Positions 9,398-29,223 of a stretch of DNA of 60,912 bases are shown here, piece by piece (within the stretch, counting starts at the first letter, position 1; each line of letters opens with the position of its first letter). A program made the translations under genes and the position numbers. The stretch comes from an uncultured bacterium (GTDB lineage: Bacteria; Hydrothermota; UBA3073; NMUJ01), in assembly GCA_965612795.1 (NCBI GenBank), contig CBFDTI010000002.1, forward strand, positions 1 through 60,912, in the 5' to 3' direction. Below the pieces are notes generated by a model. That model worked only from the letters and a program-made list of their open reading frames with translations, did not search any database and had not been told where the DNA came from.

Positions 9398-9404
9398 TTG
9401 CGGG

Positions 9405-9432
9405 TTGACAGCAATTTTACTCCTTTTATATT
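9405..9432 (+). promoter_or_regulatory. Candidate sigma70-type promoter of the T9SS/TBDR locus
   Basis: TTGACA (9405-9410), 16-nt spacer, TATATT (9427-9432), about 100 nt upstream of the 9531 start codon. Confidence 0.35.
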
Positions 9433-9530
9433 CTTTAGGAATGGATTGCATCCCAATTTATTATATTTTACGGGGATGGCCAATGTTTAACCATATAACT
9501 ATTAATTTGACTATATAGCTGGGAGGAGGG

Positions 9531-12500
9531 ATGTATAAAAAGTTCTTCATACTCTTATCATTGATACCAGGTTTGCTTCTCGCTGGAACATGGGGAAAGA
9601 TCACCGGTAGGGTAACAGATGTTGAAACAGGTAAACCGCTTGCAGGTGCAAATATTATAATCGAAGGCACCACAATGGGGGCTGCTACCGACACTAATGG
9701 CTATTACACGATCCTGCATGTACCTCCAGGGACTTATACACTTAAGGCTATGATGATGGGTTACGCAACATCTACAGTTACCGGGGTACGTGTTATGATC
9801 GATCTAACCACGGTAGTCGATTTTAAGATGGAACCCACCGTACTCCCTGGTGTCGAGATAACAGTGGTTGCTAAACGTCCTATAATACAGAAAGATGTAG
9901 CAGGTAGTCAAAGGATTTTCACCTCGGATGAGTTCACGACATTACCAGCAGCTAATATCTCCGATGTACTCAGCATTCAACCCGGTATCACATCGGATTT
10001 ATCAATCCGTGGCAGTGGAGCCGATCAGGTAGCAGTCATCGTTGATGGCATTCTGCTGAGAGATAGGAGGACAAACCAACCCATTGCGAGGTTACCATTG
10101 AGTGCACTAAAGGAGGTATCGATACAAGCGGGAGGGTTCGCCCCTGAGTATACTGACTTACGTGCAGGTGTCGTCAACATAGTAACGAGAGAGGGACATA
10201 CAAACTACTACACGGGGACGTTTACATTTAGGATAAGGCCGCCTGCACCTAAGCATTTCGGTATCTCACCGTATGATCCCAACGCTTATTGGTTAAGGCC
10301 ATTCCTCGACCCTGACGTATGTTGGACAGGTACCAAAAACGGTGCATGGGATGAATACATGCAAAGGCAGTACCCCGAGTTTGAGGGCTGGATAGCATTT
10401 GCCGAACGTACACTTAAAGATGACGATCCCACCAACGATCTAACGCCAGAAGCTGCACAGAGGATATTTATGTGGCAATACCGTAAGCAGGGTGAGATCA
10501 AGAAACCCGATTATAACATCGATTGTGGGTTCGGTGGCCCAGTTCCAATCATAGGTAAAGCGCTCGGTAACCTACGATTCTACACCGCATTCAGGTACGA
10601 ACAGAACATGTACCTGATAGAGTTGTCACGTGATGCACTTAGGGACTACACGTGGATGACAAAGTTAACTTCTAACCTCTCACCCCATATGAAGCTATCC
10701 ATCCTTGGGCTATACGATGTACTACATGCAACCTCTCATTCCAGGGTAGGTGGTACATCTTACTTCTCCAGCGTATGGGAGGTTGCCGATGCCATGGATA
10801 GGATCGGCTTCACATTACCATGGAGGTTATACACTAACGACTACTGGTGCCCAACCTCGCGCTTCACCTACACAGTATCTGCAAAGCTCACCCATATGGT
10901 TAGCCAACATACGTTCTATGATGCACTTATAAAAATAGACCATAGACGTTATGAAACGGGTCCCGGCCGCTATAGGGATACCACAAAGAAGTACGAGATA
11001 CTACCAGGATACTTTGTTGATGAGGCACCATTCGGGTTCTTTGAGGATTATTTCACATCGATCGACGGTAACTTAGCGATGGGTGGCCCCATCAGCACAT
11101 CACGTGATTCCAGCCGCTACACCACATTTACAGCGAGGTTCGACCTTGTATCGCAGATCAACCCCACCAATCAGATAAAGACGGGTTTGCAATTCATATA
11201 CGATAAGCTTGACCTACGGTTTGGTTCCTACAATGCGTATCTACCCGAAGGTAACCACTGGACGGTAGCTAAATGGAACCCCTACAGATTATCACTATAT
11301 CTACAAGATAAGCTCGAATACGAGGGTTTCATAGCTATTATCGGTATGATAGCGGATTATACGAATCCAAACGGATATTGGTACGATGTCGATCCTTTCG
11401 ATAGAACTTTCTATTCCGAGGAGTACAACCCTGAGTATGAACCCAACATCCCTAAACGTAAGATAGATCCACGTCTCACACTTAGCCCACGATTGGCAAT
11501 TTCACACCCCATTACTGAGAATGCAAAGTTATTTTTCAATTACGGGCATTATCGGCAGGCGGCAACATCTGAAGCCCTGTATCGGATCAGAAGATTATAT
11601 AACAACAAAGTAGAATACATAGGTGACCCCAACATACCGTTGGCTAAGACAGTATCTTACGAGATAGGTTATGACCATGTCATATTGGGGAACTATCTAT
11701 TACGTATATCTGCGTATTACAAAGATATCACTAACCAACAAGATTGGACCCGCTACATAAGTGCCGACGGTAAGGTGAACTATTACAGGTTAACGGCCAA
11801 AAACTACGAAGATATTCGTGGGTTCGAAATCGAGTTCACAAAGATGGCCGGTAGATGGGTTACATGGAACCTCAATTACGAGTATCGGGTGAACACATCA
11901 GGATATTTTGGGGTTAAACAATACTATGAGAATCCCGCCGAACAGCGTGAATATGAACGCCGTAGCCCTGTGGAGTGGAAACCAAGGCCACGCCCAAGAT
12001 TCAAAGGATACGTCGATATCCATACGCCACAGGATTTTGGGCCAAAGATTGCTAACCACAATGTGCTTGGTGATTGGCATATCACCTTCGTTGGTTCATG
12101 GACAGCTGGATGGTGGATGACATGGAATCCCAACAATGTCCCTGGTATCGCATATAATGTGCAGACAAGGGATTTCTACAATGTGGATGTGAAAATATTC
12201 AAGACGTTCTCCTTTGGAGGAGTCGATATACGGTTGTTTGTGGATATTTACAACCTGTTCAACCTTAAGCATTTCTCATGGGCATCGTTCTCAGATGCCT
12301 ATGATTTCGACTATTACATGAAATCACTACATCTACCAAAGGAGATCGCTGACCCATTAGGTTATGGAAATATACCCGGGAATGACCGGCCCGGTGATTT
12401 CAGGGATGAAGGTGTCGAATACCAACCAATGGAATGGGTACCTGATGTGAACAATTTGACGGATCCCAACCCTCGTGTCATCTACTATGATGCCAAAACA

Positions 12501-12668
12501 GAAAAGTACATGCAGTATGTAGATGGTGAATGGGTTGAAGTCGACCACGATAGGATCAAGAAGATACTCGACACGAAAGCATACATCGATATGCCTAACC
12601 AAACCTATTTCACGTTCCTTAACCCAAGGAGTGTGTTCTTTGGGTTAACCATCAATTATCGTTTTTGA
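9531..12668 (+). CDS. TonB-dependent-receptor-type outer membrane barrel with an N-terminal carboxypeptidase-regulatory-like domain
   Basis: Signal peptide. GKITGRVTD..GKPLAGANI..TDTNGYYTI..PGTYTL (CarboxypepD_reg). Plug motifs (ISDVLSIQPGI, IRGSG, VDGILL, IQAGGFAPEY). C-terminal ..INYRF. RBS GGGAGGAGGG. Confidence 0.8.
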   Translation: MYKKFFILLSLIPGLLLAGTWGKITGRVTDVETGKPLAGANIIIEGTTMGAATDTNGYYTILHVPPGTYTLKAMMMGYATSTVTGVRVMIDLTTVVDFKMEPTVLPGVEITVVAKRPIIQKDVAGSQRIFTSDEFTTLPAANISDVLSIQPGITSDLSIRGSGADQVAVIVDGILLRDRRTNQPIARLPLSALKEVSIQAGGFAPEYTDLRAGVVNIVTREGHTNYYTGTFTFRIRPPAPKHFGISPYDPNAYWLRPFLDPDVCWTGTKNGAWDEYMQRQYPEFEGWIAFAERTLKDDDPTNDLTPEAAQRIFMWQYRKQGEIKKPDYNIDCGFGGPVPIIGKALGNLRFYTAFRYEQNMYLIELSRDALRDYTWMTKLTSNLSPHMKLSILGLYDVLHATSHSRVGGTSYFSSVWEVADAMDRIGFTLPWRLYTNDYWCPTSRFTYTVSAKLTHMVSQHTFYDALIKIDHRRYETGPGRYRDTTKKYEILPGYFVDEAPFGFFEDYFTSIDGNLAMGGPISTSRDSSRYTTFTARFDLVSQINPTNQIKTGLQFIYDKLDLRFGSYNAYLPEGNHWTVAKWNPYRLSLYLQDKLEYEGFIAIIGMIADYTNPNGYWYDVDPFDRTFYSEEYNPEYEPNIPKRKIDPRLTLSPRLAISHPITENAKLFFNYGHYRQAATSEALYRIRRLYNNKVEYIGDPNIPLAKTVSYEIGYDHVILGNYLLRISAYYKDITNQQDWTRYISADGKVNYYRLTAKNYEDIRGFEIEFTKMAGRWVTWNLNYEYRVNTSGYFGVKQYYENPAEQREYERRSPVEWKPRPRPRFKGYVDIHTPQDFGPKIANHNVLGDWHITFVGSWTAGWWMTWNPNNVPGIAYNVQTRDFYNVDVKIFKTFSFGGVDIRLFVDIYNLFNLKHFSWASFSDAYDFDYYMKSLHLPKEIADPLGYGNIPGNDRPGDFRDEGVEYQPMEWVPDVNNLTDPNPRVIYYDAKTEKYMQYVDGEWVEVDHDRIKKILDTKAYIDMPNQTYFTFLNPRSVFFGLTINYRF

Positions 12669-12679
12669 AGGGAGGTAGA

Positions 12680-14803
12680 ATGAACCATAAGCGTTACATA
12701 TTTGTTATCTCCCTGTTTCTAATACTGTGTGGCACAATATTTGGTGACGAAGTGAAGTGGCTCGCCATCGGTTCGCTACATGACTGGTTTTCGAGTGCAG
12801 GTTGTGAACGTGAAGTCGGTCGTAGGCACTTGATATCCGACCAACAGGATGGTTTAAGGTGGGATGCTCAGTTCCCATACCAGGATTGTAAAGCTGCTAA
12901 GGGGTTATGGATTGGCTGTCGAAACTATTATGACCCCTTAGTAGATAAGACATTTGGGTACAAAGTTGTCCATATAGGGCCAAGGGTTTTGAACGAGGAG
13001 AACGAGATCTTACCCGTTGAGTTTAAGCTTTATGGGCGGTTTGATCACCCCACGGTGATCGTTGACGGTATACCCGCATGTAATACCACCTACATGGATA
13101 TGGTGGATGAGGTTATTGATACACTCAAAGCGGATAGAATGCTGTACAATGTGGTGAACACATCCATAGGTATAACGATCACACGTAAGATCTATGCATT
13201 CAGCAACCAATATCATGATAACTACTTCATCTACGACTATGTATTTAAGAACACTGGCATATATGATAAGGAGGGGCATCGCCACGAACAGACGTTACAA
13301 GATGTGGTGATATTTTTCCAATACCGATATTCACCATGTAGGGAGACTGGCCCGTATGGGTATTATTGGATGCCACAGAATACAAGCTGGGGCCGTAACA
13401 CAGTTAACGATGTTGTAGGTCATAGGGAGCCGATCGGTGAACCTTTTCGCGCAATATTCGCATGGAAAGGCAAACATTCCGCATGGAATGCACCCGGTGA
13501 TTGCATAGGTGAGCCGAACATTGGCTCCGAATACGTAGCAGCTGATGGCCGGTTAGGTGCACCACAGTTCTGTGGTGTTGTCGTCATACATGCGGATAAG
13601 TCGCCTCACGATACAACGGACGATATTTACCAACCCATGACTACATGGTATATAGATTCCGATCACCCAAGGAACTCCGGTAACGATCAGTTCAATGAAG
13701 AATACATGGCAGAAGAGTACGAGTTGATGACAAGGGGACATGCACCAAAAACGCACGCCGAGGAGGTAGGTGACGGTAATGCTGATGAGTTTGGTGCCAC
13801 CGCCGGCGGCTATTCGTCCACACAAGGGTTTGGCCCGTATACGCTTGAACCTGGTGACAGCATCCACATAGTGCTTGCGGAAGCCGTGGCGGGCTTGAGC
13901 CGCAAATCCGCGGTGGAGATAGGCAGATTATGGTACAAATGGGCATATGAGGGATACACTGGACCATTTGAACTACCTGATGGAAGTACAACCAATGACG
14001 GTAACGAATATAAGAATGCGTGGGTATTCACTGGCAAAGATTCACTATTTGAAACATTCAGGCGTGCGATCGCAAATTATAAATCTGGATTCAATATCCC
14101 ACAACCTCCACCACCGCCGGATCTGTTCGTAGTTGAATCGGGTGGCGATCGTATCAGGTTGACATGGTCTGACAATGCCGAAGCGTGGCCTAACTTCAGA
14201 GGTTACAGAATATATCGGGCAATACACAGACCGGACACATTCTATCAATTGATATTCGAGTGTGGTGAAGGTACCGCACATCCAGAGATCGTACATGAGT
14301 TTGATGATATGACCGCACTTAGGGGGTTCAATTATTACTACTACATTACATCGTTTGACGATGGCAGTACTAACGATATTGCACCCGGTGTACCGTTGGA
14401 GAGTAGCAAATTCTACACAATGACGAATGAACCTGCATTCCTGCGACGTCCACCAGGGTTATCGCTTGAGGATATCAGGGTGGTACCTAACCCATACAAT
14501 ATAAGGGCACGTGAGCTACAGTATGGAGCGGGTGGCCCTGATCGTATCATGTTCCTAAACATACCGCCATTCTGTATCATAAGGATATATACTGAGAGAG
14601 GTGACCTTATTAAGACCATCGTACATGACGATGGTAGTGGTGACGAAGCGTGGGAATCGGTTACCTCATCACGACAGCTTGTAGTAAGTGGCCTGTATAT
14701 TGCACATTTTGAGGTAACCCGTGACTATTACGATCCAGAGACTGGTGAACTGCTATACAGGAAAGGGGATCAAACCATCCGCAAATTTATAATAATTCGG
14801 TAG
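12680..14803 (+). CDS. Secreted orphan protein with a PPPPP linker, an Fn3-like domain and a divergent T9SS C-terminal sorting domain
   Basis: ATG at 12680 after GGGAGG (the ORF-track TTG at 12665 is rejected). Signal peptide. PQPPPPPDLFVVESGGDRIRLTWS..YRIYR (Fn3-like). C-terminus VVPNPYN..IIRIYTERGDLIKTI..SGLYIAHFEV..KFIIIR. Confidence 0.55.
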   Translation: MNHKRYIFVISLFLILCGTIFGDEVKWLAIGSLHDWFSSAGCEREVGRRHLISDQQDGLRWDAQFPYQDCKAAKGLWIGCRNYYDPLVDKTFGYKVVHIGPRVLNEENEILPVEFKLYGRFDHPTVIVDGIPACNTTYMDMVDEVIDTLKADRMLYNVVNTSIGITITRKIYAFSNQYHDNYFIYDYVFKNTGIYDKEGHRHEQTLQDVVIFFQYRYSPCRETGPYGYYWMPQNTSWGRNTVNDVVGHREPIGEPFRAIFAWKGKHSAWNAPGDCIGEPNIGSEYVAADGRLGAPQFCGVVVIHADKSPHDTTDDIYQPMTTWYIDSDHPRNSGNDQFNEEYMAEEYELMTRGHAPKTHAEEVGDGNADEFGATAGGYSSTQGFGPYTLEPGDSIHIVLAEAVAGLSRKSAVEIGRLWYKWAYEGYTGPFELPDGSTTNDGNEYKNAWVFTGKDSLFETFRRAIANYKSGFNIPQPPPPPDLFVVESGGDRIRLTWSDNAEAWPNFRGYRIYRAIHRPDTFYQLIFECGEGTAHPEIVHEFDDMTALRGFNYYYYITSFDDGSTNDIAPGVPLESSKFYTMTNEPAFLRRPPGLSLEDIRVVPNPYNIRARELQYGAGGPDRIMFLNIPPFCIIRIYTERGDLIKTIVHDDGSGDEAWESVTSSRQLVVSGLYIAHFEVTRDYYDPETGELLYRKGDQTIRKFIIIR

Positions 14804-14811
14804 GAGGTGAA

Positions 14812-15378
14812 ATGCGCGCTATACAGTTCAAAGCATTGCTATTTGTGGCAATTATTATATCCATCAGTTGTGAGAAATTTCGTACCGAAGAGTATCACAT
14901 GAAAGATGTTGATATACGGGCATGTGCGTATCTTACAGATAGCTTAAGTGATACAATTTATGTGAGGCCACTCACATATTTTGACACAAACTGGGTAGCC
15001 CCTTATATATACGATAACGTTGCGGAGATTATCGACACATTGGACGCACATAACATTAAGATTGAGCCATCCATGGGTTACACTATTATCACCGAAGAAG
15101 CTATAGATACAAACTACATAGTGTATAGGAATACACATGCGGGTGAAGTGATCATCTTCATCAATGACTACTTGAACGTCAATGTTATAAGCGAAGACTC
15201 TATCATAAGAGAAAAGAGTCGCGCTATACCACTCGAAACAGTTGCTGGCTGCCCGGAGATAAGGACGCGGTTCGTTTATGTGCTTGAAGAAGACGAGTAC
15301 CTTTTGGAGTTCATAAAAACTGATCAAACATTATCTGATACCTTTAATACCGTGATACTCTGGGAGGAGGCACGATGA
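14812..15378 (+). CDS. Small lipoprotein, unknown function
   Basis: Signal peptide with lipobox IISISC, RBS TAGGAGGTG, no recognisable domain. Confidence 0.5.
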   Translation: MRAIQFKALLFVAIIISISCEKFRTEEYHMKDVDIRACAYLTDSLSDTIYVRPLTYFDTNWVAPYIYDNVAEIIDTLDAHNIKIEPSMGYTIITEEAIDTNYIVYRNTHAGEVIIFINDYLNVNVISEDSIIREKSRAIPLETVAGCPEIRTRFVYVLEEDEYLLEFIKTDQTLSDTFNTVILWEEAR

Positions 15379-16352
15379 GAAAACTATATATAGTGGGTGT
15401 GATCATGATATGCTCTTTGATGGTTAAGAATGCTTACCCACAAGTGAAGCTCGCACAGACAGGGTTCCAATTCCTAAGTGTAGGTGCAGATGCGCGTGCA
15501 TGCGGTATGGGTGAAGCATTCACGACCGTTGAAGGGCAAGCTTCCGCCCTATTCTACAACCCTGCCGGTATAGCACGATTGGGTTCATCTATCGATATTG
15601 CAACAAATTACACCAAATGGATTGCGGACATCACACACTACTCGTTAAGCTTTGCATTTAAGCCGAAAGCTGGCAAGTATGGTGTATTCGGTATAAGCGT
15701 ATTATCTGTTGATTATGGTGAGATCCAAGGTACCATGGTGTGGCCTAACCCAGAGGGTTACATCGAAACAGAGGTGTTCCGGCCAGCTGCATACGCTATT
15801 GGGGTAGGTTATGCAAGAGCCCTAACAGATAAGTTTGTTGTTGGAGGGCAAATCAAACACACCGCGCAATCCTTAGGTAAGAGTGTCATACCCGATGAAG
15901 GTGTCAAGAAGAACATTGCGTCAACTTTCGCATATGACTTCGGTACTATATATCGGACAGGGTTCAAAAGCTTATCATTCGGCATGTGTGTACGTAATTT
16001 CTCACCAGAGGTGAAGTTCGAAGAGGAGGGGTTTCAACTACCGCTTACATTCAAGATTGGTATATCGATGGATCTGCTCGATATCTTTATGAGCGACCAC
16101 AAGGGTCATTCGCTGCTCGTTGCCATAGATGCTGCACATCCACGTGCATATCGTGAATATATCAACATGGGTATGGAATATAAATTTATGAATATGTTGG
16201 CGTTACGGGTTGGATACGTAACCAGCCAAGACGAGTATGGATTAACTGCGGGGTTTGGTGTGCACCAATTTGGAGTTTCAATCGACTATGCATATACACC
16301 ATTTGGTGTATTTGGTAACGTTCATAGGCTTACTCTACATATTTTGAGGTAG
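15375..16352 (+). CDS. PorV/PorQ-family outer membrane beta-barrel (T9SS cargo shuttle-like)
   Basis: Signal peptide, then FQFLSVGADARACGMGEAFTTVEG.ASALFYNPAGIA, the hallmark N-terminal motif of PorV/PorQ-type barrels. Alternating beta-strand pattern. ATGA overlap with the upstream gene. Confidence 0.65.
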   Translation: MRKLYIVGVIMICSLMVKNAYPQVKLAQTGFQFLSVGADARACGMGEAFTTVEGQASALFYNPAGIARLGSSIDIATNYTKWIADITHYSLSFAFKPKAGKYGVFGISVLSVDYGEIQGTMVWPNPEGYIETEVFRPAAYAIGVGYARALTDKFVVGGQIKHTAQSLGKSVIPDEGVKKNIASTFAYDFGTIYRTGFKSLSFGMCVRNFSPEVKFEEEGFQLPLTFKIGISMDLLDIFMSDHKGHSLLVAIDAAHPRAYREYINMGMEYKFMNMLALRVGYVTSQDEYGLTAGFGVHQFGVSIDYAYTPFGVFGNVHRLTLHILR

Positions 16353-16360
16353 GAGGGGAT

Positions 16361-17542
16361 ATGAGAAATACCATAATTGTTGGGTTGACGATCTTAACTC
16401 TATGTATTTTTGTAAGTTGTGAGAGAGAGTACCCCAGTATATGGAATCCCAATCAAGAGTTTAAACCCAACCCTATCATCACGAGTGTCGAACCGCCAGA
16501 AGGTACGTTTGCTGTCATTGGTACCGTAACAGTAAAGGGTGAGAATTTCTCACCGGTCAAGGACGAAAACTACGTATATTTTGATGGCGAAAAAGGTACA
16601 ATTCTAACCGCTAGCGATACATTACTTACGGTGAACCCACCTAACATAGCCGGTGATTCAATAAGGATAAAACTACGTGTAGAGGGTGCACTCTTGTATG
16701 CTGAATACTATCCATATAAGTTGATGTATGCGGCTGAGGAATATGGTGGGTTCGATGACTACGATGATTGTTACGGACTTGCATGTGATACAAATGAGAA
16801 CCTTTACGTATCGGTGAGAAGTCGCAAAGTTATAATGGTAACACCCGATGGTGAACAGCATGATTATGCAACAACAAGCTTTGAAAAAGCTTCCGCAATG
16901 CGAATGGGTCCAGAGGGTTATATATACTATGTCAACATCCTACCCTATGTATTCCGCATATTACCAGGTGGTGGTAGCGATGAGCTATTTGTGGTATTAC
17001 CAGGTGGTGTATACGATCTTGACTTCGACCAATACGGTAACCTATACTGTGGTGGTAACGGGCAAGCTATATATCGGGTGAAATCCGACCGTAGCTACGA
17101 GATAGCTGCTGATTATTCTGGTATAGATATAAAAGCTGTACGGGTGTTCAACGGTTATCTATATGTAGGTGGTGACTCATCCGACCATAAGTGTATCTGG
17201 CGTAACCAGATAGTATCGGAGGATTCACTCAGCACACGTGAGCTCTATTTTGACTGGTCCTCATATTTTGGTGCATATGATATATTTTCTATAACGTTTG
17301 ATATCAATGGTAACATGTATGTTGGTACTGATGCACCTGAGGCGATAATCATTGTACGTCCGGATAAAAGCTATACACCTCTATATCCAGGTGTACTTGA
17401 ACCCCAAACCTATACCCTCTGTTGGGGTAACAGAGAATACTTATATGTGAATCGGCGTAGCGATGATCCATCAAAAAAGAGGATTATAAGGATTAATATG
17501 TTAGATAAGAGGGGAGCCCCATATTATGGGCGTCAACTTTAA
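16361..17542 (+). CDS. Lipoprotein with an IPT/TIG domain plus an NHL-like beta-propeller
   Basis: Lipobox IFVSC. ITSVEPPEG..VTVKGENFSP..VYFDG..LTVNPP (IPT/TIG). Repeated blades (NENLYVS, EGYIYYV, YGNLYCG, NGYLYVG, NGNMYVG). Confidence 0.6.
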   Translation: MRNTIIVGLTILTLCIFVSCEREYPSIWNPNQEFKPNPIITSVEPPEGTFAVIGTVTVKGENFSPVKDENYVYFDGEKGTILTASDTLLTVNPPNIAGDSIRIKLRVEGALLYAEYYPYKLMYAAEEYGGFDDYDDCYGLACDTNENLYVSVRSRKVIMVTPDGEQHDYATTSFEKASAMRMGPEGYIYYVNILPYVFRILPGGGSDELFVVLPGGVYDLDFDQYGNLYCGGNGQAIYRVKSDRSYEIAADYSGIDIKAVRVFNGYLYVGGDSSDHKCIWRNQIVSEDSLSTRELYFDWSSYFGAYDIFSITFDINGNMYVGTDAPEAIIIVRPDKSYTPLYPGVLEPQTYTLCWGNREYLYVNRRSDDPSKKRIIRINMLDKRGAPYYGRQL

Positions 17543-17572
17543 TCTACATGTTTTTAGCAAAAAGGAGGTAAC

Positions 17573-18973: not shown

Positions 18974-18983
18974 TCGCATATCC

Positions 18984-19019
18984 AAAAGGGGGTCGGTGGC
19001 CATCGCTGACCCCCCTTTT
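18984..19019 (+). terminator. Intrinsic terminator/attenuator inside the locus
   Basis: AAAAGGGGGTC (18984-18994) pairs with GACCCCCCTTTT (19008-19019), with a GC-rich stem followed by a T-run. It sits 11 nt after the stop at 18973. Confidence 0.6.
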
Positions 19020-19048
19020 ATTATAAAATGTAAACCGGGTGAGGAGGA

Positions 19049-20296: not shown

Positions 20297-20318
20297 TAGT
20301 GTAGGAGATATCTCTCAT

Positions 20319-23300
20319 ATGGTAACACCAATAAGGACGTGGGCTGTAAGCCCTTTTCTCTTATTGTGCCAAATTTTATCCGCAGGTATTAACGAAGAGT
20401 TTCGTGCGACATGGGCAGTCACATGGGACATATACAGCCCATACGGTAACCCAGGAGCCAGCCAACGCCTATGTCGACAGGTGATGGAACGCCACAAACG
20501 TGCCAACATGAACGCTGTGTTATGGCAAGTACGGCAGAACGGTGAAGTATATTATCCATCATCGTACGAACCTTGGGGAAGATACATCGGGCATCAGGAT
20601 CCAGGCTATGACCCGCTCGCATACGCTATAGAGGAGGCACACAAACGTGGGCTTGAACTCCATGCGTGGGTTAATGTGTTCCACGTATCAGCATTCGACC
20701 CTGGGGCACCTGCTTATGAGCATCAGAATTGGATATGCAGGGACGGCTATGGACGGCCGATGACATCACACAGGTGGTTTTCGCCCGGCCTCGACTCCGT
20801 ACGAAACTATACGATAAAGGTTATAATGGAGATTGTACGTAACTACGATATAGATGGCATACACCTCGATTATGTAAGATGGAGCGAATATACAAGCACC
20901 AAAGAGGGTGAATTGCTGGCAAAGTCCATCCCCGAGGAACGTTCACTCGATGGCTTCATAACACCTGAGCTGTTGAAAGCATTACAGGAGGCACCACCCC
21001 GTAACCGTTACCTGTACGATATTGAGCACCCATGGGATACTGTGCCACCGGAGGGGTTCGAAACATGGGAGGATTGGTGGCGCTGGTCAGTCACCGAATT
21101 TGTACGTGAATTGCACGATTCCATACAGGCGGTGAAGCCATGGGTACGCCTATCAGCAGCAGTTTTGGGTAGATACAATTGGGGTAGCTGGCAAGCCTAC
21201 GGTAGGGTTTTTCAGGATGCAGCATTATGGTTTAACGAAGGTTATGTTGACCAGCTCACCCCTATGCATTACCATTGGACGACACCTGCAGAGTTTTACA
21301 ATATGCTATGTGGTGAATATCACTGTTGGGAACCATGGATCCAAGAAGGCATAGCAGCTGGCCGGCTATACACCGTGGGGCCGGGTTCGTATATCCTCGA
21401 CATGTATGGCGCGTGGGATAACCATCCCGCTATCGTGGATACATGTAGGACCATATCATGGGTGGATGGATTCCAATTCTTCAGTTACGCTACATGGTGT
21501 AGCCATGACTACTGGGATGAAGCTGGTAGCACATTCTTCAACCGTAAAACCAAGATACGTGCAACGAGGTTAATAGATAGCATACCACCGGAACCGGTGC
21601 AGATTGAACTAAATAAGATCGACTCTTTAACATATGCGATAACCGTTTTGCTGGGGTTTGTCGCCTCAGATACGAATTACTGGTTCGCTATATACAGGTC
21701 ACCTGATAGCATTATTGATGTATCGAACGACGATATCGTACACATACATTTTGGTGATAGTAGCTTCACTTACGTGGATAGTTTCGACGGTACACAGGAT
21801 TACAACGGTAAATACTACTATGCTGCTACAGTGTTTGATAGATACTGGAACGAATCCGACATATCGAATGTTGAAGTGTCCGACTCGATACCGTCGTTTG
21901 CACCTATCGTCGTGTACACGATACCTGCAGATAGTGACTCAATATCTATCGCAGATAGTATAATTGTGGGGTTCTCCAAAACCATGGATACGACGTCGTT
22001 TGATGACACCACGATAAGTATTGAACCCCATATTGGTATTGCGCAACTGCTATGGTCGAATGGTAACAAAACGCTAACAATTGTACCTGATGGATATTTC
22101 CAGTATGATACATGGTATGAACTAACCATACAGCCATCGGCAAGGGACATAAATGGTAGGGCGCTTGATGGTAACGCTGACGGTATAGAGGGTGACCCGT
22201 TTGTACTGCGGTTCAAGACGTTTGCGCGTGACGATATACCACCACATATCGTGTATACGTATCCGACCAGTGGTGAAGATAGTTTCGACATACAAGACGT
22301 AATCACGGTGGTGTTTGACGAACTCATAGACACCAATACGTTGGATACCGTAAGTGTCAGGCTATACTGTGGATGGACCATGTTACCGATAGCGTTTACA
22401 CATACGGTGATGCATGGTAAGTCAATCTTATGCATACAGCCTAAGCAACCGTTCACCCCCAACACCGACTATACGGTGTTGTTATCACATACACATGCTA
22501 TAACAGATACTGCAGGTAATCCCATGTCATCATATGTGGTGATCAACTTCCACACAGCAGATGTAACCTATACCGAGCTGGTGATGATAGAAGATTTCAC
22601 ACCGCTTGGAACATGGTGGCAACCCGAACAGAGTGGGTCAACACATGGCATCTATGCACTTAATACGGAATGGGGTTATACCGGCGAAGTTTATCCACCA
22701 GCATCTACACCAGCCCAATCCGCATACTTGCAGTATGAATGGAACGAATCCGACCCACCATGGTTGCTTAGGGAGTATCTTGCAGGTGGTGCACCACGTG
22801 AGATAATATTTGATACCACCTATGTGTTGCAATGCTATGTTTTTGGTGATTGCAGCTATAACAAGTTTAGGTTCTGTGTCGACGATAGTACCATGGATCA
22901 GTCGCAGTTTCATGAAGTTTCAAAATGGATAACCTTGGACTGGTACGGCTGGCGGTTGGTGGAGTGGCAGCTTAACGATCCCAACAGTGTCGGATACTGG
23001 ACGGATGATGTAGGTGATGGTACATTAAATCCGCCGTTGAGGTTTGATAGCTTCCAGCTAACACATGAGGTTGGTGATTCCATCAGTGGTGTGATATACA
23101 TCGATGAGCTACGGCTTGTGAGGAAAGCTCAGATAGGTGTGGAGGAACCCTCCACCACCTGTGTGACATTGGGTAACCATCCCAATCCGTTCAATACTAA
23201 AACGAGTATAGTATTCTCGTTACCCAAACCCGGTGTGGTTGAACTCACAGTGTACGATGTTACAGGCCGTGTAGTGGCTACACTTGTTAATGGGTTGATG

Positions 23301-23420
23301 GGTAAAGGGCGACACGAGGTTACCTTCCATGCACCCAATGATATGGCGGCTGGGGTGTACTTCTACTCGTTGAGGTTTGATGGCAAATTATTTACAAACA
23401 AACTACTCCTCGTGAGGTAA
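20319..23420 (+). CDS. Multidomain surface enzyme: GHL10 (YngK/YddW-DigH-like TIM barrel) + 2 SbsA-type Ig (Big_5) domains + CBM-like beta-sandwich + T9SS CTD
   Basis: Signal peptide. EFRATWAV..MNAVLWQVRQNGEVYYPSSYEPWG..GLELHAWVNVF..DGIHLDYVRW (GHL10). Two ~100-aa P..V....P repeats ending ..G..L. CTD HPNPFN..VELTVYDVTGRVVATL..AGVYFYSL..KLLLVR. Confidence 0.7.
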   Translation: MVTPIRTWAVSPFLLLCQILSAGINEEFRATWAVTWDIYSPYGNPGASQRLCRQVMERHKRANMNAVLWQVRQNGEVYYPSSYEPWGRYIGHQDPGYDPLAYAIEEAHKRGLELHAWVNVFHVSAFDPGAPAYEHQNWICRDGYGRPMTSHRWFSPGLDSVRNYTIKVIMEIVRNYDIDGIHLDYVRWSEYTSTKEGELLAKSIPEERSLDGFITPELLKALQEAPPRNRYLYDIEHPWDTVPPEGFETWEDWWRWSVTEFVRELHDSIQAVKPWVRLSAAVLGRYNWGSWQAYGRVFQDAALWFNEGYVDQLTPMHYHWTTPAEFYNMLCGEYHCWEPWIQEGIAAGRLYTVGPGSYILDMYGAWDNHPAIVDTCRTISWVDGFQFFSYATWCSHDYWDEAGSTFFNRKTKIRATRLIDSIPPEPVQIELNKIDSLTYAITVLLGFVASDTNYWFAIYRSPDSIIDVSNDDIVHIHFGDSSFTYVDSFDGTQDYNGKYYYAATVFDRYWNESDISNVEVSDSIPSFAPIVVYTIPADSDSISIADSIIVGFSKTMDTTSFDDTTISIEPHIGIAQLLWSNGNKTLTIVPDGYFQYDTWYELTIQPSARDINGRALDGNADGIEGDPFVLRFKTFARDDIPPHIVYTYPTSGEDSFDIQDVITVVFDELIDTNTLDTVSVRLYCGWTMLPIAFTHTVMHGKSILCIQPKQPFTPNTDYTVLLSHTHAITDTAGNPMSSYVVINFHTADVTYTELVMIEDFTPLGTWWQPEQSGSTHGIYALNTEWGYTGEVYPPASTPAQSAYLQYEWNESDPPWLLREYLAGGAPREIIFDTTYVLQCYVFGDCSYNKFRFCVDDSTMDQSQFHEVSKWITLDWYGWRLVEWQLNDPNSVGYWTDDVGDGTLNPPLRFDSFQLTHEVGDSISGVIYIDELRLVRKAQIGVEEPSTTCVTLGNHPNPFNTKTSIVFSLPKPGVVELTVYDVTGRVVATLVNGLMGKGRHEVTFHAPNDMAAGVYFYSLRFDGKLFTNKLLLVR
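21063..21184 (+). repeat. Near-identical nucleotide tract shared with 24135-24255 (paralog gene-conversion candidate)
   Basis: Identical runs of 26, 36 and 21 nt (acatgggaggattggtggcgctggtc; cacgattccatacaggcggtgaagccatgggtacgc; tatcagcagcagttttgggta). The flanking gene sequence is much more diverged. Confidence 0.6.
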
Positions 23421-25802
23421 GTGGTGACAATCTTAACTATTCTCTTGATTTCGTATCAACCCATGTACGAGTTGAATAACGAGGAGTTTCGTGCGGTATG
23501 GGTTATCACATGGGAGCAACTCGACCCTGTTTGGCCACACCCGGATAACAGGGATAGGATATGTGAGATACTGGATAACATAAAAGCTGCAAACATGAAC
23601 GCAGTATTGTGGCAGGTACGTCAGAACGGTACCGCATACTATAGGTCATCTTATGAGCCGTTCGGTAAATACATGTTTTACAGTGATCCAGGTTACGATC
23701 CGTTCGCGTATGCGGTTGAACAGGCGCATGCGAGGGGGTTGGAGATACATGCATGGATGAACGTGTTCGAATGTAGGGGTGCAGCGATAGGGTCACCAGC
23801 ATATGAACATCCGGAATGGGTCTGCAGGGACGAAAATGGTAACCCCATGCCTGATAGGATAGCGGCACTTTCGCCAGGATTATCGGAGGTACGAGAATAT
23901 TTGATAAATGTTGCTATGGAGATCGTAAGGAATTACGATATAGATGGGTTGCATCTCGACTATGTTCGATGGAATGAGTTTACCACCCCAGAACGTACCG
24001 AACAACTCAAACAGCTTATGAAAGAAGGGTTAACCCCAACCGATATGATGCACGAATTTGTTCATAACAAAAAGGGACGCTACCTGTACGATGTTGAACA
24101 TCCATATAAGGCAGGTGTACCCGAAGGGTTTGACACATGGGAGGATTGGTGGCGCTGGTCGGTTACCGAATTCGTACGTGTGCTACACGATTCCATACAG
24201 GCGGTGAAGCCATGGGTACGCTTATCAGCAGCAGTTTTGGGTAAATACAATTGGGATACATGGCAAGCTTATGGTAGGGTATTCCAAGATGCAGCATTGT
24301 GGTTCAATAATGGCTATGTGGATCAGTTGATGCCAATGCATTATCATTGGACCACTCCGGATGGGTTTTATGATGCATTAACTCGATGGGAACCCTCAAT
24401 CCAACCCGGTATAAACGAGGGACGGTTATACACCGTAGGGCCGGGTTCGTATAAATTTTCCTTAAATGGTGTATGGGCTAACCATCCATGGGTGATCGAA
24501 ACCTGTAGAGGGTTTACGTGGGTGGATGGGTTCCAATTCTTCAGTTACAGGTGGTGGGATGACCACCAATACTGGGTAGAGGCGAGTAAAACCTTCTTCA
24601 TGCAAAAGACGAAGATCAGGGCGATAGGCCTGATTGATAGTATACCGCCGGAACCACCAGCAATTAGTGTGAGTAAATTGGGCCCCTTAACGTATGAGAT
24701 TAAGGTGACACCACCCGATGAGATGGCAGCAAAGTGTTGGGTTGTAATTTATCGATCACCCGATAGTATTATAGATGTGGATGAAGATGAGATCGTCGAT
24801 ATATACTTTGGTGATACAACATTCGCACATGTGGAGAGGTTCGACAGTTACACAACCCAAGATAAACATTTCTATGCCGCAACAGCTATCGATAGGTACT
24901 GGAATGAATCACCGATATCAAACATAGTGCAGATCAACATAACAAAGATGATGCATTATAAACCTATTTATAAGATGACATATGATGAGATAGATAAGCT
25001 CCTGAAGGAAATAAGTAAAAAGAAATGGACAATTTCGGAGAGGATTAACTTCTACTCGGAAAGGTTTTTAGGTACTCTGTATAACTTCCAGTGTGTAGGT
25101 GATGGCCCTTACGCTATGGTTGAGAATTGGCCATTGGTGAACTTACGTGAAACTAACTGTATGGCACTATGTGAACACGTATTGGCGATGGCGATATCGG
25201 ATTGTTGGGATAATTTTTTCAACAATCTGCTCCATATACGGTACAAGGATGGTATAATCGGTATCAAAACACGTAACCACTACACGATGGCGGATTGGTT
25301 GCCCGAAAATCGTTGGCTACTTGATGACGTCACCAGACGTATAGGCGGAAAGTATACGCGATCGGTGACAAGGACGATATCACATAGAAAGTTTCTTAAA
25401 AATAAAGGTATAGAGGATATGCAATACGTGAAACCCGATCGCAAGCTTACGATAGATTATGTACCGATGGATGTGCTGTTGATGGTCGAAGACAGTGTGA
25501 AGGCTGGCGATATAGGAGCGTTAATCTATGCGAATAGGGATGACATATTTTCTGCACATATGGTGATCGTAGCAGAGAAGGGTGGTAGGAAATACATCCG
25601 TGAAGCCAGCCGCAAAAAGGGTACGATCGACACCCCTTATGAGGAATGGGTCAATACAATGAAGGCAACCAACAAATATCTTGGGATGGCTTTCATGAGG
25701 GTACGTGACGAGCTCAACAAACCCGGCAAAATCATACTACCGTGGGAGATACATAAACTGAAGGCGCGATTGGATGAAGACGGGGGTGAGCTACTTCGGT
25801 AA
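23421..25802 (+). CDS. GHL10 domain fused to a C-terminal AmiA-like (DUF1460) NlpC/P60-type N-acetylmuramoyl-L-alanine amidase-like domain; no T9SS CTD
   Basis: The N-terminal 500 aa are paralogous to 20319-23420. The C-terminus has FLGTLYNF..LVNLRETNCMALCEHVLAMA..IRYKDGII..TRNHYTMADWLPEN..GDIGALI..FSAHMVIV, matching the DUF1460 pattern as I recall it. GTG start directly after the upstream TAA, so the start is uncertain. Confidence 0.6.
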   Translation: MVTILTILLISYQPMYELNNEEFRAVWVITWEQLDPVWPHPDNRDRICEILDNIKAANMNAVLWQVRQNGTAYYRSSYEPFGKYMFYSDPGYDPFAYAVEQAHARGLEIHAWMNVFECRGAAIGSPAYEHPEWVCRDENGNPMPDRIAALSPGLSEVREYLINVAMEIVRNYDIDGLHLDYVRWNEFTTPERTEQLKQLMKEGLTPTDMMHEFVHNKKGRYLYDVEHPYKAGVPEGFDTWEDWWRWSVTEFVRVLHDSIQAVKPWVRLSAAVLGKYNWDTWQAYGRVFQDAALWFNNGYVDQLMPMHYHWTTPDGFYDALTRWEPSIQPGINEGRLYTVGPGSYKFSLNGVWANHPWVIETCRGFTWVDGFQFFSYRWWDDHQYWVEASKTFFMQKTKIRAIGLIDSIPPEPPAISVSKLGPLTYEIKVTPPDEMAAKCWVVIYRSPDSIIDVDEDEIVDIYFGDTTFAHVERFDSYTTQDKHFYAATAIDRYWNESPISNIVQINITKMMHYKPIYKMTYDEIDKLLKEISKKKWTISERINFYSERFLGTLYNFQCVGDGPYAMVENWPLVNLRETNCMALCEHVLAMAISDCWDNFFNNLLHIRYKDGIIGIKTRNHYTMADWLPENRWLLDDVTRRIGGKYTRSVTRTISHRKFLKNKGIEDMQYVKPDRKLTIDYVPMDVLLMVEDSVKAGDIGALIYANRDDIFSAHMVIVAEKGGRKYIREASRKKGTIDTPYEEWVNTMKATNKYLGMAFMRVRDELNKPGKIILPWEIHKLKARLDEDGGELLR
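24135..24255 (+). repeat. Partner copy of the near-identical tract at 21063-21184
   Basis: Same identical runs as the partner copy. Both encode WEDWWRWSVTEFVR.LHDSIQAVKPWVRLSAAVLG. Confidence 0.6.
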
Positions 25803-26754
25803 TAGGAACCCCAAATGGGTGAGACATGATATGCTCGATATAGTGGGACATAACTGTAATTTCGTCCTGCATACATTTTCGGAATTTGATAGGCTGTTCT
25901 ACAAGGATACTATGAAAGCGATCGTTGATATATCGCATGAAGTTGGGCTTGAAGTTTATGTCGATCCATGGGGGGTTGGTAACGTATTCGGTGGCGAACC
26001 GTTCTCAAAAATAGTGAACGAGTACGAGATATGTCAGGTAGATAATAAGTTCAACCCACTACCGGCAGCTTGTGTTAACAACCCTAAATTTGTCGAATTC
26101 ATGTATCGCTGGATAGAAGATGTGAAATACATCGGTGGTGATGTATTGTTCTGGGATGAGCCACATTTCTATAACCCAGATAGTGGTTGGGCATGTAGAT
26201 GTAAATACTGTCAGGAGGAGTTTAAGAGAGTATTCGGCTATGATATGCCTGAAACTTCCAATGCTGATATTCTGAAATTCAAAGAACTGAGTATAGTGAG
26301 GTTTGTGAAGCAGCTTGCAGAATATGGTAAGGGATTAGGTATGCGATCCGCTGTATGCCTGTTACCACAGGAGAGTGAGAAATCCAACGTTGACGATTGG
26401 GAAAAAATAGCAGCAATAGATAGTATCAATATCATAGGTACAGACCCCTACGAATACCATAGGACGGATTTCATCGATAGAATAAGAGGTTACGCAAATA
26501 AGATATACAATATAGCGAGTAAGTTTGCTAAGGATGGACAGCTATGGGTACAGTGTTTCTCTATAAAGGAAGGTGAGGAATGGAAAGTCAGAAAGGCGGT
26601 TGAAACCATCTATGAGGCAGGTATCAGGAACATAGGGGCATGGAGCTACGAAGGTACAAGCTACATGTCGTACGTAAGATCCGACAACCCCAAGAAGGTG
26701 TGGGAGACGTTAAAAGAAGCATATGGAAGATGCATTTCATTGGCATCCAAATAA
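25774..26754 (+). CDS. Cytoplasmic GH42-like catalytic-domain-only TIM-barrel protein
   Basis: No signal peptide. Cys100 plus C141-x-C143-xx-C146 (WACRCKYCQEEF) bracket Glu129 (FWDEP), mirroring the Zn-Cys cluster and acid/base order of GH42 beta-galactosidases. The start overlaps the upstream gene by 29 nt. Confidence 0.4.
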   Translation: MKTGVSYFGNRNPKWVRHDMLDIVGHNCNFVLHTFSEFDRLFYKDTMKAIVDISHEVGLEVYVDPWGVGNVFGGEPFSKIVNEYEICQVDNKFNPLPAACVNNPKFVEFMYRWIEDVKYIGGDVLFWDEPHFYNPDSGWACRCKYCQEEFKRVFGYDMPETSNADILKFKELSIVRFVKQLAEYGKGLGMRSAVCLLPQESEKSNVDDWEKIAAIDSINIIGTDPYEYHRTDFIDRIRGYANKIYNIASKFAKDGQLWVQCFSIKEGEEWKVRKAVETIYEAGIRNIGAWSYEGTSYMSYVRSDNPKKVWETLKEAYGRCISLASK

Positions 26755-26782
26755 ATATCGTTTTCGGTAACGAGGAGGTAAT

Positions 26783-28201
26783 ATGCTAAAAGTTTATGTG
26801 GTAGGGTTAGGTAAACCAAACATGGAGATAGGGTGGCCTTACCATGATTTCGATGTCGTAGCCGCTATGAAAGAGTACAAAGAGAAATTACAAAGGATAG
26901 GTGAATCCAAAGGGATAGAATTTCGTGGCTATGATGTGCCAGAAAAGGAGAGCCATATAATCCAGTTACTGGATAGGTTAGAAAATGAAAATTTCGATGC
27001 TGTTTTGGCAATAAGCTTAACTGCTGAGTTTGCATCGTTAGGGCCATCTATTTTCAAGATAGCAGATAGTGGGTTACCTACTGTGGTTTATACTAAACCG
27101 TTCAGCACGTACTGGGATGGAGCAGGTCGGTTGTATAAAAGTGGATATAGAGTTGTAGTCTGTGACTCGAACAATATCGAAGACGTTGCCCCTATATTTG
27201 ACGTAGTGAAGGCGATTGTGAGGCTCAAGCATACACGATTATTACTATTAAAGGACTATGATTATGACATCAAATGTATGGATCCAAGGATCAAGGAACC
27301 AAGATGGATGGGTCCATCGTATTTTAAAAGATTAAAAGAGATATTTGGTATCGAAACAGTAAAGCGTAGCATCCCAGATGTCTTTCGTTATTATGAACAG
27401 ATAAAAGAAACCGATGCGAAGCTGCTGGCAACAGAGGCTATAAATGTATCAGATGGCGTATTTGGGCCTACAGAGGAGGAGGTAGCTAAAGCAGCGAGAT
27501 TATACTTAGCTGTCAGAAATATGATGAAAGATACCGGTACGAATGCGGTGACCATCGACTGCCTTAGTAGTATAAGACATAAGACATTACCTATAAGTCC
27601 TTGTTGGACGATATCAAGGTTGAATGACGAAGGTATACCCGCCGGTTGTGAAGCAGACGTTGAGTCACTTATAACCCTATGTTTTTGTCACTATTTAGCG
27701 GATAGACCCGGATTCCAGGGCGACCCTGTCATAGATGAGAGTAGTAATAGGATAATATTCGCACACTGTACAGCTGCAACAAGCCTTATGGGGGATGGGG
27801 AACCACATTTTGGGTACAGATTTAGGACACAGACGGAATCATCCCGTGATGTAGCTATAGAAGCAGATATGAAAGAAAACGAGGAAGTCACTATATTGAA
27901 GCTTATTGGTATTATGGGAGCGAAATCCGTGTGCTGGCCAGAGATAACAGTTTATAAGAGGTTTGAGGGATACCACCTGCTAGCCTACAAGGCGAAAACC
28001 GTCAAAGTGGATAAGCTCGGGTGGGGATGCAGAACAAAAGTAGCTATAGAATTGACATCAGATGAGATTGAAAACTTCAAGCGTAACTTCTACGGTCACC
28101 ATAGGGTGCTTCTGTACGGTGACTATGTGAAACAACTGCAACTATTAGCCAGCTTCTTAGGTATAAACTTTGTGAACAAGCTATATCTGGAAGTTAAATA
28201 G
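26783..28201 (+). CDS. L-fucose/L-arabinose isomerase-family protein (cytoplasmic sugar isomerase-like)
   Basis: No signal peptide. IPAGCEADVESLITL and the overall size/layout resemble the COG2407 isomerase family. RBS GAGGAGG. Confidence 0.5.
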   Translation: MLKVYVVGLGKPNMEIGWPYHDFDVVAAMKEYKEKLQRIGESKGIEFRGYDVPEKESHIIQLLDRLENENFDAVLAISLTAEFASLGPSIFKIADSGLPTVVYTKPFSTYWDGAGRLYKSGYRVVVCDSNNIEDVAPIFDVVKAIVRLKHTRLLLLKDYDYDIKCMDPRIKEPRWMGPSYFKRLKEIFGIETVKRSIPDVFRYYEQIKETDAKLLATEAINVSDGVFGPTEEEVAKAARLYLAVRNMMKDTGTNAVTIDCLSSIRHKTLPISPCWTISRLNDEGIPAGCEADVESLITLCFCHYLADRPGFQGDPVIDESSNRIIFAHCTAATSLMGDGEPHFGYRFRTQTESSRDVAIEADMKENEEVTILKLIGIMGAKSVCWPEITVYKRFEGYHLLAYKAKTVKVDKLGWGCRTKVAIELTSDEIENFKRNFYGHHRVLLYGDYVKQLQLLASFLGINFVNKLYLEVK

Positions 28202-28278
28202 ATCTGTGACATCGACATAATCAAGTTCGTCTATTGTAATATCACAGCTATGATGTATTTTAGATAATTGGAGGTCAG

Positions 28279-28659: not shown

Positions 28660-28743
28660 TCTGGATTATCTACCGCTATATTAGCATATTCAAATTCGAA
28701 ATTGTCGAGCGATTAGGACTCTTAGTACAATACATTTCAAGCT

Positions 28744-29175: not shown

Positions 29176-29223
29176 TTATGCTCCTTAATAACATAACTAA
29201 CCCCCAACCTTTAACTTATTATG

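Follow-up and report, generated by a model that had tools for sequence, protein, structure and literature searches.

We analysed a 60,912-nucleotide stretch of DNA from an uncultured bacterium of the Hydrothermota lineage (the window; GenBank assembly GCA_965612795.1, contig CBFDTI010000002.1, positions 1 to 60,912), which holds a run of eleven co-directional genes that an earlier note, made from the sequence alone, had described as a SusD-less outer-membrane glycan capture locus coupled to secretion of the type IX kind (the type IX system, T9SS). All eleven open reading frames (ORFs; g1 to g11 in order) were verified on the plus strand between 9531 and 28201, with coordinates exactly as first listed. 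Adjacent genes overlap by 4 nt at g1/g2 and g3/g4 and are otherwise separated by gaps of 0–75 nt, much as had been described, save for one 29-nt overlap at g9/g10. Ahead of g1 lies a promoter-like site (TTGACA-16-TATATT, 9405–9432, plus strand) that matches the consensus at 11 of 12 positions and is, by consensus match alone, the top sigma-70-like site across the scanned region 9300–28400, while Shine-Dalgarno sequences of the GGAGG type precede g1 and g7; both kinds of signal had been predicted. The strongest terminator-like hairpin of the region (18988–19014, plus strand; a stem of 12 bp, 8 of them GC, followed by a T-rich tail) occupies the g6/g7 gap (18974–19048), the one gap in which a hairpin had been reported. 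It coincides with the border between two modules, A (g1–g6, 9531–18973) and B (g7–g11), and, because the unit conserved in other genomes is g1–g6 (below), with the end of that unit.

Module A opens with a TonB-dependent outer-membrane transporter (TBDT; g1, 9531–12668, plus strand) that carries an N-terminal CarboxypepD_reg domain (PF13620), a Plug domain (PF07715, 35.3 bits, cutoff 23.9) and an OMP_b-brl_3 barrel (PF14905, 33.7 bits, cutoff 27), all above cutoffs, which bears out the type of barrel named in the earlier note. Its match to the SusC/RagA model TIGR04056 reached 53.8 bits against a cutoff of 368.25 and was confined to residues 23–154, and a sequence search with g1 matched none of the solved TBDTs, SusC included. 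The overlapping gene g2 (12665–14803, plus strand) encodes a 712-residue secreted protein that matched no Pfam or NCBIfam model and no PDB sequence. Its AlphaFold2 (AF2) model (pLDDT 86.3, pTM 0.83) is mainly beta, with a signal peptide, a large beta-supersandwich (residues ~30–478), an FN3 domain and a C-terminal beta-sandwich resembling the C-terminal sorting domain (CTD) of T9SS cargo. Foldseek searches of the PDB weakly matched (TM ~0.2) the supersandwich at the N-terminus of glycoside hydrolase family 94 (GH94) phosphorylases and otherwise found FN3 domains; with no PDB sequence match and such weak structural hits, the assignment of g2 as an enzyme or a known fold goes no further than a beta-supersandwich. 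The third gene, g3 (14812–15378, plus strand), encodes a putative lipoprotein of 188 residues (lipobox ISISC) that matched no Pfam or NCBIfam model, SusD families included, and is much shorter than SusD-family proteins typically are.

A SusD protein among these orphans was considered and rejected. Neither g2 nor g3 matched SusD, the g2 model, a confident one, is rich in beta structure and lacks a helical TPR fold, its Foldseek hits did not include SusD, and no SusD family of Pfam or NCBIfam matched any of the eleven proteins, in agreement with the absence reported before. The same protein set yielded no match to a hybrid two-component system (HTCS), an extracytoplasmic function (ECF) sigma factor or anti-sigma factor, or a SusR-type regulator, so that claim too stands.

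The fourth gene, g4 (15375–16352, plus strand), encodes a 14-strand barrel of the PorV/PorQ family, as had been proposed (NF033709, 209.6 bits, cutoff 90). Because it satisfies neither equivalog model (PorV, 95 vs 250; PorQ, 93 vs 220), we treat it as a paralog; its sole PDB relative is PorV of F. johnsoniae (6h3i, E 7.7e-8), and by analogy we propose that it may anchor CTD-bearing partners. An IPT/TIG domain (PF01833, 42.8 bits) and weak propeller repeats make the lipoprotein g5 (16361–17542, plus strand; lipobox FVSC) a candidate surface glycan-binding protein; lipoprotein status was read from the lipobox in both g3 and g5. The last gene of the module, g6 (17573–18973, plus strand), combines a beta-propeller with weak SGL/NHL-type repeats and a type A T9SS sorting domain (TIGR04183, 36.2 bits, cutoff 23). 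Its paralog g7 (19049–20296, plus strand; 35% identity to g6) opens module B with the same propeller and type A CTD arrangement (TIGR04183, 40.5 bits).

We assessed conservation by comparing the window proteins with the ORFs of 83 non-redundant loci (stop-to-stop ORFs, BLAST coverage of at least 50%; taxon labels of metagenome-assembled genomes, MAGs, as deposited), 57 of which extend at least 6 kb downstream. Relatives of the g2 cassette were found in at least 584 genomes of a collection with one genome per species, and the compared loci come from KSB1, Calditrichota, Ignavibacteriota (Melioribacteraceae/Ignavibacteriales), Neomarinimicrobiota/Fidelibacterota, Delongbacteria and WOR-3. The order g1–g6 recurs in nearly all of the 83 loci, and thus in other phyla, which answers the check on gene order that the earlier note had asked for. 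A g1 homolog lies directly upstream of 103 of 108 g2 copies, a PorV-like gene homologous to g4 is present in 54 of the 57 loci, the TIG lipoprotein (g5 homolog) in 50 and a propeller-CTD gene (g6 or g7 homolog) in 35, and g3 homologs (22–47% identity) fill the same slot in 21. Barrel and g2 genes form two pairs in 36 of the 57 loci and three pairs in two; barrels of ~40% identity are always paired with g2 copies of ~40% identity and have a single PorV-like gene in common. Several loci can also occur in one MAG (L017 with L061, L036 with L083). The full eleven-gene order was rejected as a single conserved unit, since g1–g6 alone are conserved and g9–g11 homologs were found beside the cassette in none of the 57 loci; the conserved unit is g1–g6, and g7–g11 are a lineage-specific addition. 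In six Marinimicrobia loci (L055, L062, L064 and L066–L068; about 12050–13100) the g3 slot holds an ORF of ~340 residues that is unrelated to g3 and has no Pfam match.

The g2 family itself comprises more than 1254 homologs with 55–76% identity across WOR-3, KSB1, Calditrichota, Melioribacteraceae, Marinimicrobia and Delongbacteria, named at NCBI, if at all, as 'fibronectin', and a g2 profile run against 1.84 billion cluster representatives retrieved 473 clusters at E ≤ 1e-30. The CTD of the window protein failed all Pfam and NCBIfam CTD models. Among 52 family members, PF18962 matched none, CHU_C matched five weakly, TIGR04183 matched 13 weakly (E ≤ 0.1), and 31 weakly matched the last ~90 positions of the PorZ model, its CTD portion; two members outside the 52-member alignment (P0014 and P0040) pass TIGR04183. 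Profile comparison with hhalign related the g2-family CTD to CTDs of the g6–g8 type (probability 80.8%, E 1.3e-5), a remote relation, and BLAST against g6–g8 detected a canonical type A CTD at the end of longer family members (1200–1600 aa). Where four sorting-domain proteins had been counted, three (g6, g7 and g8) pass TIGR04183 and g2 shows a remote relation alone; its C-terminal domain does not appear to be a standard sorting signal. Ordinary T9SS sorting signals are poorly conserved in sequence. The CTD-like core of g2 (residues 604–686) is the most conserved part of the protein (mean column identity 0.80, compared with 0.68 for the N-domain) and is nearly unchanged even among ~40%-identical paralogs; conservation this strong suggests that the domain has a fixed protein partner.

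Larger relatives add to this picture of the family. Some long g2 forms (P0343–P0349 and P0372, 1200–1600 aa) continue from the conserved N-domain and FN3 domain into ~800 extra residues and end in a canonical type A CTD, and other members of the superfamily (P0416–P0435, about 1050–1275 aa) carry 430–630 extra N-terminal residues, P0435 resembling the TIG-propeller protein g5.

Module B continues with two related enzymes. The first, g8 (20319–23420, plus strand), has a signal peptide, a GHL10 domain (PF02638, 121.8 bits, cutoff 27.9), two Big_5 domains (PF13205, 89.7 bits) and a type A CTD (TIGR04183, 33.5 bits), and is predicted to act at the surface. The second, g9 (23421–25802, plus strand), fuses a GHL10 domain (PF02638, 124.7 bits) to a DUF1460/AmiA-like NlpC/P60 amidase domain (PF07313, 91.3 bits, cutoff 27); it fits none of the categories in the earlier inventory, which covered the other ten of the eleven genes. 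The two proteins are 60% identical over 498 aa, g8 being surface-directed and g9 not. A query of public assemblies for the exact g9 sequence returned no record. A Cys ('ETNC') and a His ('SAHM') of g9 align with motifs (DC and HMG) that are conserved in 2p1g and 4h4j, and we take them to be the catalytic pair of the NlpC/P60 family. Among solved structures the GHL10 domains have a single relative, Cwp19 of C. difficile (5oq2, E 5.9e-29 for g8), a lytic transglycosylase that releases 1,6-anhydromuropeptides from peptidoglycan (PMC6016235). AmiA of Bacteroides uniformis, the characterised DUF1460 member, cleaves N-acetylglucosamine-1,6-anhydro-N-acetylmuramic acid-peptide (GlcNAc-1,6-anhydroMurNAc-peptide) into disaccharide and stem peptide (PMC4600125). 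The product of Cwp19 is thus the substrate of AmiA, and g9 would fuse one enzyme type with the consumer of its product.

The last two genes encode signal-less proteins. AF2 modelled g10 (25774–26754, plus strand; pLDDT 92.9) as a TIM barrel resembling clan GH-A glycosidases, with Foldseek TM scores of 0.6–0.75 to GH35, GH5_18, GH42 and GH164 enzymes. Its invariant residues are C100, C141, C143 and C146 (C...CxCxxC) and E129-P130, and the Cys cluster recalls the zinc site of GH42 enzymes. No Pfam or NCBIfam model matched g10, and PDB sequence searches with g10 and g11 returned nothing useful, so that g10 was resolved by structure prediction alone. Homologs of g10 usually adjoin BadF/G or ROK sugar kinases and, in an Omnitrophota contig, occur with GH94, ROK and PGM genes. 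The family, which no Pfam or NCBIfam model covers, numbers more than 1000 homologs, spread over Omnitrophota, Zixibacteria, Calditrichota, Spirochaetota and others, and the predicted structure makes it a candidate new family of cytoplasmic glycosidases. An L-fucose-isomerase-like protein is encoded by g11 (26783–28201, plus strand; NF048012, 57 bits, far under cutoff, and a weak PF02952 match). Its family is rare (97 homologs), and relatives occur in contexts of the N-acetylgalactosamine (GalNAc) type (GH123, AgaS, PfkB, GatZ, SSF) and beside BadF/G-type kinases. One g11 relative (P0268, 36% identity) is annotated from the eukaryote Anaeramoeba ignava, where gene transfer or contamination is possible.

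Immediately upstream on the same strand, as had been stated, lies an SSS sodium:solute symporter (7661–9397, plus strand; PF00474, 120.8 bits; TIGR00813), a candidate inner-membrane importer of the released sugar, and beyond it a GH63/MGH1-like gene on the minus strand; the carbohydrate-active enzymes (CAZymes) at the locus are accordingly two GHL10 domains, the GH-A-like g10 and this gene. The closest g2 homologs belong to candidate division WOR-3 (4484_18 at 94% and JGI_Cruoil_03_44_89 at 76% identity), which agrees with the earlier judgement that the host is not Bacteroidota proper. A metagenome contig of 96% identity (L092) keeps the order GH63 (minus strand), SSS symporter and g1–g8.

The flanks of cassettes elsewhere bear on the substrate. 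Homologs of the GHL10-CTD gene g8 stand directly downstream of the cassette in four loci (L005, L019, L026 and L078), upstream in L014 and inverted in L046, and these GHL10-Big_5-CTD flanks come from Melioribacteraceae, a Calditrichaceae MAG, a Marinimicrobia MAG and others. Homologs of the SSS symporter (40–43% identity) lie upstream of the cassette in L043, L069 and L079. A Fidelibacterota locus places an SSS gene and a class-A beta-lactamase/S11-like protein gene with the cassette, and two loci from other phyla (L069 and L079) combine SSS, GH20 and cassette, one of them with GH94 downstream. Por_Secre_tail proteins account for 14 of 97 ORFs downstream of cassettes, where MFS, GH94, GHL10, GH20 and GH2 genes were also found. 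Judged by these gene annotations, N-acetylhexosamine (HexNAc) glycans appear as a recurring theme of cassette flanks. Cassettes are not always embedded in CAZyme-rich polysaccharide utilization loci (PULs), a generalisation we rejected on seeing mostly housekeeping genes upstream (DNA polymerase I in Marinimicrobia) and mixed genes downstream. In Marinimicrobia the whole two-pair cassette follows directly after DNA polymerase I, and in the Melioribacteraceae loci L005 and L006 (2743–6548) the genes directly upstream of it encode a propeller/Y_Y_Y sensor histidine kinase and, with it, a GerE-type response regulator, a split analogue of the hybrid two-component PUL regulators of Bacteroides that is absent from the window.

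A second genomic context for the module B enzymes was found in the WOR-3 genome JGI_Cruoil_03_44_89, where a single cluster (L087) holds GHL10, two AmiA-like genes, SSF, a CTD protein, NamZ, an acetyltransferase and a g10 homolog together with a BadF/G-type kinase, an Amidase_3 enzyme with CarboxypepD_reg domains, Peptidase_S13 and an MR_MLE enzyme. The same cluster contains a second PorV-like gene, adjoining an FG-GAP CTD protein. That a muropeptide lifestyle exists in the superphylum is shown by a Fidelibacterota strain in culture, which lives on muropeptides of exogenous origin (PMC11652737). From the domain content of its genes, the substrate of module B is likely peptidoglycan or a related HexNAc glycan.

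We consider it somewhat likely that the locus as a whole is a two-module outer-membrane nutrient-harvesting system, in which a conserved cassette is joined to lineage-specific enzymes and the substrate is, most probably, the peptidoglycan of other bacteria. Each transport, docking and catalytic step in what follows is one that we infer from domain identities, folds, conservation and gene order. After Sec export, g2, g6, g7 and g8 would leave the cell by type IX export, and g6–g8 would become surface-bound in the way of ordinary type A cargo. The TonB-dependent barrel g1 would work with g2 as its dedicated secreted partner, held at the surface beside g1 by docking of its CTD-like domain on the locus-encoded g4. 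Precedents for such docking are the PorU-PorV and PorZ-PorQ pairs, and in the Bacteroides BAM complex the FadL/PorV-type barrel BamF holds a surface subunit by its loops. The large beta-sandwich of g2 may bind substrate and hand it to g1, making g2 a functional stand-in for SusD, with g5, g6 and g7 as additional surface binders. Module B and the upstream SSS symporter would set the substrate in this lineage, namely peptidoglycan glycan strands or muropeptides. At the surface g8 would nick cell-wall strands in the manner of a lytic transglycosylase, g1 would import the fragments using TonB energy, and g9 would trim them and strip the stem peptide from GlcNAc-anhydroMurNAc. The SSS symporter could then take up the disaccharide or monosaccharide, and g10 (GH-A-like glycosidase) and g11 (isomerase-like) would start cytoplasmic catabolism.

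Such a system would share much with the PULs and utilisomes of Bacteroidota. A large CarboxypepD_reg TBDT is translationally coupled to the gene of a surface partner, barrel and partner duplicate pairwise, and a single co-directional cluster brings together an IPT/TIG lipoprotein, a glycoside hydrolase of the surface, sugar enzymes of periplasm and cytoplasm, and a symporter of the inner membrane. Unlike in PULs, the partner is a beta-sandwich/FN3 protein with no SusD fold, the barrel falls short of the SusC/RagA model, T9SS-type C-terminal domains take the place of lipid anchors on three to four surface components, a barrel of the PorV/PorQ family belongs obligatorily to the set, and no HTCS or ECF/anti-sigma regulator is encoded; g2 is also far more conserved than SusD proteins usually are. 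The PUL-like, T9SS-coupled logic put forward in the earlier note therefore holds in outline, with surface, periplasmic and cytoplasmic sugar enzymes, but missed the two-module structure and the likely peptidoglycan substrate. Its companion claim, that T9SS cargo replaces the Sus lipoproteins, is right about the sorting domains and the PorV paralog. It needs one correction, in that the cassette is not a blanket SusCD replacement: Melioribacter roseus has a canonical SusCDE operon (PMC3534657), and the cassette family occurs in genomes of its family, the Melioribacteraceae.

Three other systems offer partial likenesses. As in the PorU-PorV and PorZ-PorQ pairs of P. gingivalis, a PorV/PorQ-family barrel is encoded with a CTD-like protein that weakly matches the CTD parts of PorZ and PorU, and by analogy a retained CTD may serve as a docking domain, as proposed for g2; unlike in those pairs, g4 lies under the equivalog cutoffs, g2 has no PorZ or PorU body, and the pair stands beside a TBDT, apparently for nutrient capture and not for cargo sorting. 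The GHL10 domains of g8 and g9 resemble Cwp19 (E ~1e-28) and the DUF1460 domain of g9 resembles AmiA, with Cys and His kept, yet both domains are fused in g9, the activities are predicted ones, and, unlike in Cwp19, one GHL10 copy is displayed via a T9SS sorting domain beside an uptake machine. Because of that display, harvesting of foreign cell wall is suggested over autolysis or self-recycling. With RagAB and other SusCD-like peptide importers the cassette shares a TBDT and surface partner forming an uptake pair for polymers too large for porins; RagB, however, is a SusD-fold lipoprotein and g2 is not, and the locus has no peptidase genes.

Several observations weigh against a peptidoglycan-harvesting system of this kind, and some of them favour other explanations. 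None of the T9SS core genes sprA/sov, porK/L/M/N, porU and porV lies in the 61-kb window, the g2 C-terminal domain fails the curated CTD models, and retention of g2 on g4 is inferred by analogy. No gene for MurQ, AnmK, NagA or NagB was found in the window, and the compartment of g9 is uncertain, as a GAGG Shine-Dalgarno sequence ahead of its GTG start is followed by a short uncharged hydrophobic leader. Alignment of 'HLDY' in g8 with 'HFDD(Y)' in Cwp19 leaves a one-residue ambiguity at the proposed catalytic Asp196 (Cwp19 residues from PMC5765458), and another GHL10 member, DogH, is reported to act on starch as well (PMC9967864). The last two points are consistent with the same architecture serving a substrate other than peptidoglycan, such as chitin, chito-oligosaccharides or another glycan on which GHL10 would act. 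So are the GH20 and GH94 genes (chitobiose/cellobiose-phosphorylase type) beside the cassette in L069 and L079, the GH94, GH20 and GH2 genes of the downstream census, and the company of the Omnitrophota g10 homolog. We nevertheless regard a different glycan as fairly unlikely, given that a peptide-free polymer hardly explains the fusion of GHL10 to an amidase whose family's characterised member is specific for anhydroMurNAc-peptides, and that the WOR-3 relative groups GHL10 and AmiA-like genes with NamZ, Amidase_3, a DD-peptidase and an L-Ala-D/L-Glu-epimerase-type gene.

The two modules might instead be independent neighbours, with the cassette importing something unrelated, for example peptides as RagAB does, and g7–g11 forming a separate operon for cell-wall recycling or scavenging. 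The terminator-like hairpin lies exactly between g6 and g7, overlapped by a weak promoter-like site, and could divide the locus into separate transcription units. Homologs of g9–g11 were found within 10 kb of the cassette in none of the 57 related loci. The neighbours upstream of many cassettes are mostly housekeeping genes, with a few LacI and ROK genes, and in the Cruoil_03_44_89 genome one contig carries the cassette (L001) and another the peptidoglycan island (L087). This view of the locus seems improbable to us all the same, rather more so than that of another glycan, because GHL10-Big_5-CTD genes flank the cassette in the six loci named above, HexNAc-related genes (GH20, GH94, S11-like) and the same SSS family recur at its borders in three phyla, g7 is paralogous to the cassette gene g6, and the arrangement is conserved in the 96%-identical relative. 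Also conceivable is that the cassette imports nothing and serves surface assembly or adhesion, as a T9SS sorting and anchoring module dedicated to its cargo, the barrels keeping a conserved surface layer or adhesin in place. An identity of 55–76% across phyla is very high for a substrate-binding protein, the CTD-like domain is the most conserved part of g2, the PorV-family barrel is nearly constant, many cassettes have no CAZyme neighbours, and Flavobacterium encodes cargo-specific PorP/SprF-type barrels beside their cargo. Against this, the Plug domain and full-size TBDT barrel of g1 make up an architecture dedicated to uptake driven by TonB, barrel and partner are duplicated together in the way of SusC and SusD, and symporters, kinases and glycosidases recur at cassette borders, so we judge a purely structural role very unlikely.

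The remainder of the window holds other features of note. A gene for an MntR/DtxR-type repressor begins 78 nt past g11 on the same strand and is followed on the opposite strand by a PAS histidine kinase and a response regulator (28279–30957 in all); no link of either to the locus could be established. A second TBDT gene, with CarboxypepD_reg and a heme/siderophore-type barrel (36102–38798, minus strand), adjoins recN (34427–36100) and is without a g2-like partner. The listed start of an AMP-binding enzyme ORF (38913–40637) falls within tRNA-Asp (38899–38971), which places the true start further downstream. A GT4 glycosyltransferase gene overlaps a GH130 gene of the beta-mannoside phosphorylase type (40634–42908), after which a 711-residue ORF with no family match lies on the opposite strand (42892–45027). 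The window ends in an rRNA operon (56422–60912; 16S, tRNA-Ile, tRNA-Ala and a truncated 23S), where GC content rises from ~0.45 to ~0.58 and which could serve to place the organism precisely in the taxonomy.

Uptake of polymers through TBDTs is already known, and the cassette itself is apparently undescribed and widely conserved. We found no published description of it in the literature on TBDTs, T9SS, PorV and SusD in these phyla or on peptidoglycan use, GHL10 and DUF1460, and the genome papers of Melioribacter and Caldithrix do not mention it; the earlier note likewise knew of no described locus of this composition. To our knowledge, nearly all that is understood of glycan import by TonB-dependent barrels and their surface partners comes from the SusCD systems of Bacteroidia. 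As a broader and tentative proposal, which we hold with clearly less confidence than the reading of this locus as a peptidoglycan harvester, phyla of the Fibrobacterota-Chlorobiota-Bacteroidota (FCB) group outside Bacteroidia may share an uptake machine in which a TBDT is capped by a T9SS-delivered beta-sandwich and a sorting domain has been re-purposed as a permanent dock on a PorV-family barrel. This would be an independent solution to the problem that SusD solves; its ancestral and main job might be the uptake of cell-wall amino-sugar polymers (peptidoglycan, chitin) of other organisms, and it could provide the outer-membrane entry for muropeptide-dependent lineages such as Fidelibacter.

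The phyla that bear the cassette are mostly uncultured and dominate sediments, the deep ocean and hot springs. The cassette is present in a MAG labelled Caldithrix abyssi (L060) and likewise in Melioribacteraceae MAGs, which points to candidate carriers for testing among cultured relatives. If the proposed system is real, it would represent a second way of building a lidded outer-membrane importer, would mean that T9SS sorting domains and PorV paralogs have a function other than secretion, and would offer a route by which these phyla take up bacterial necromass in the form of peptidoglycan, a large and poorly traced pool of carbon and nitrogen.

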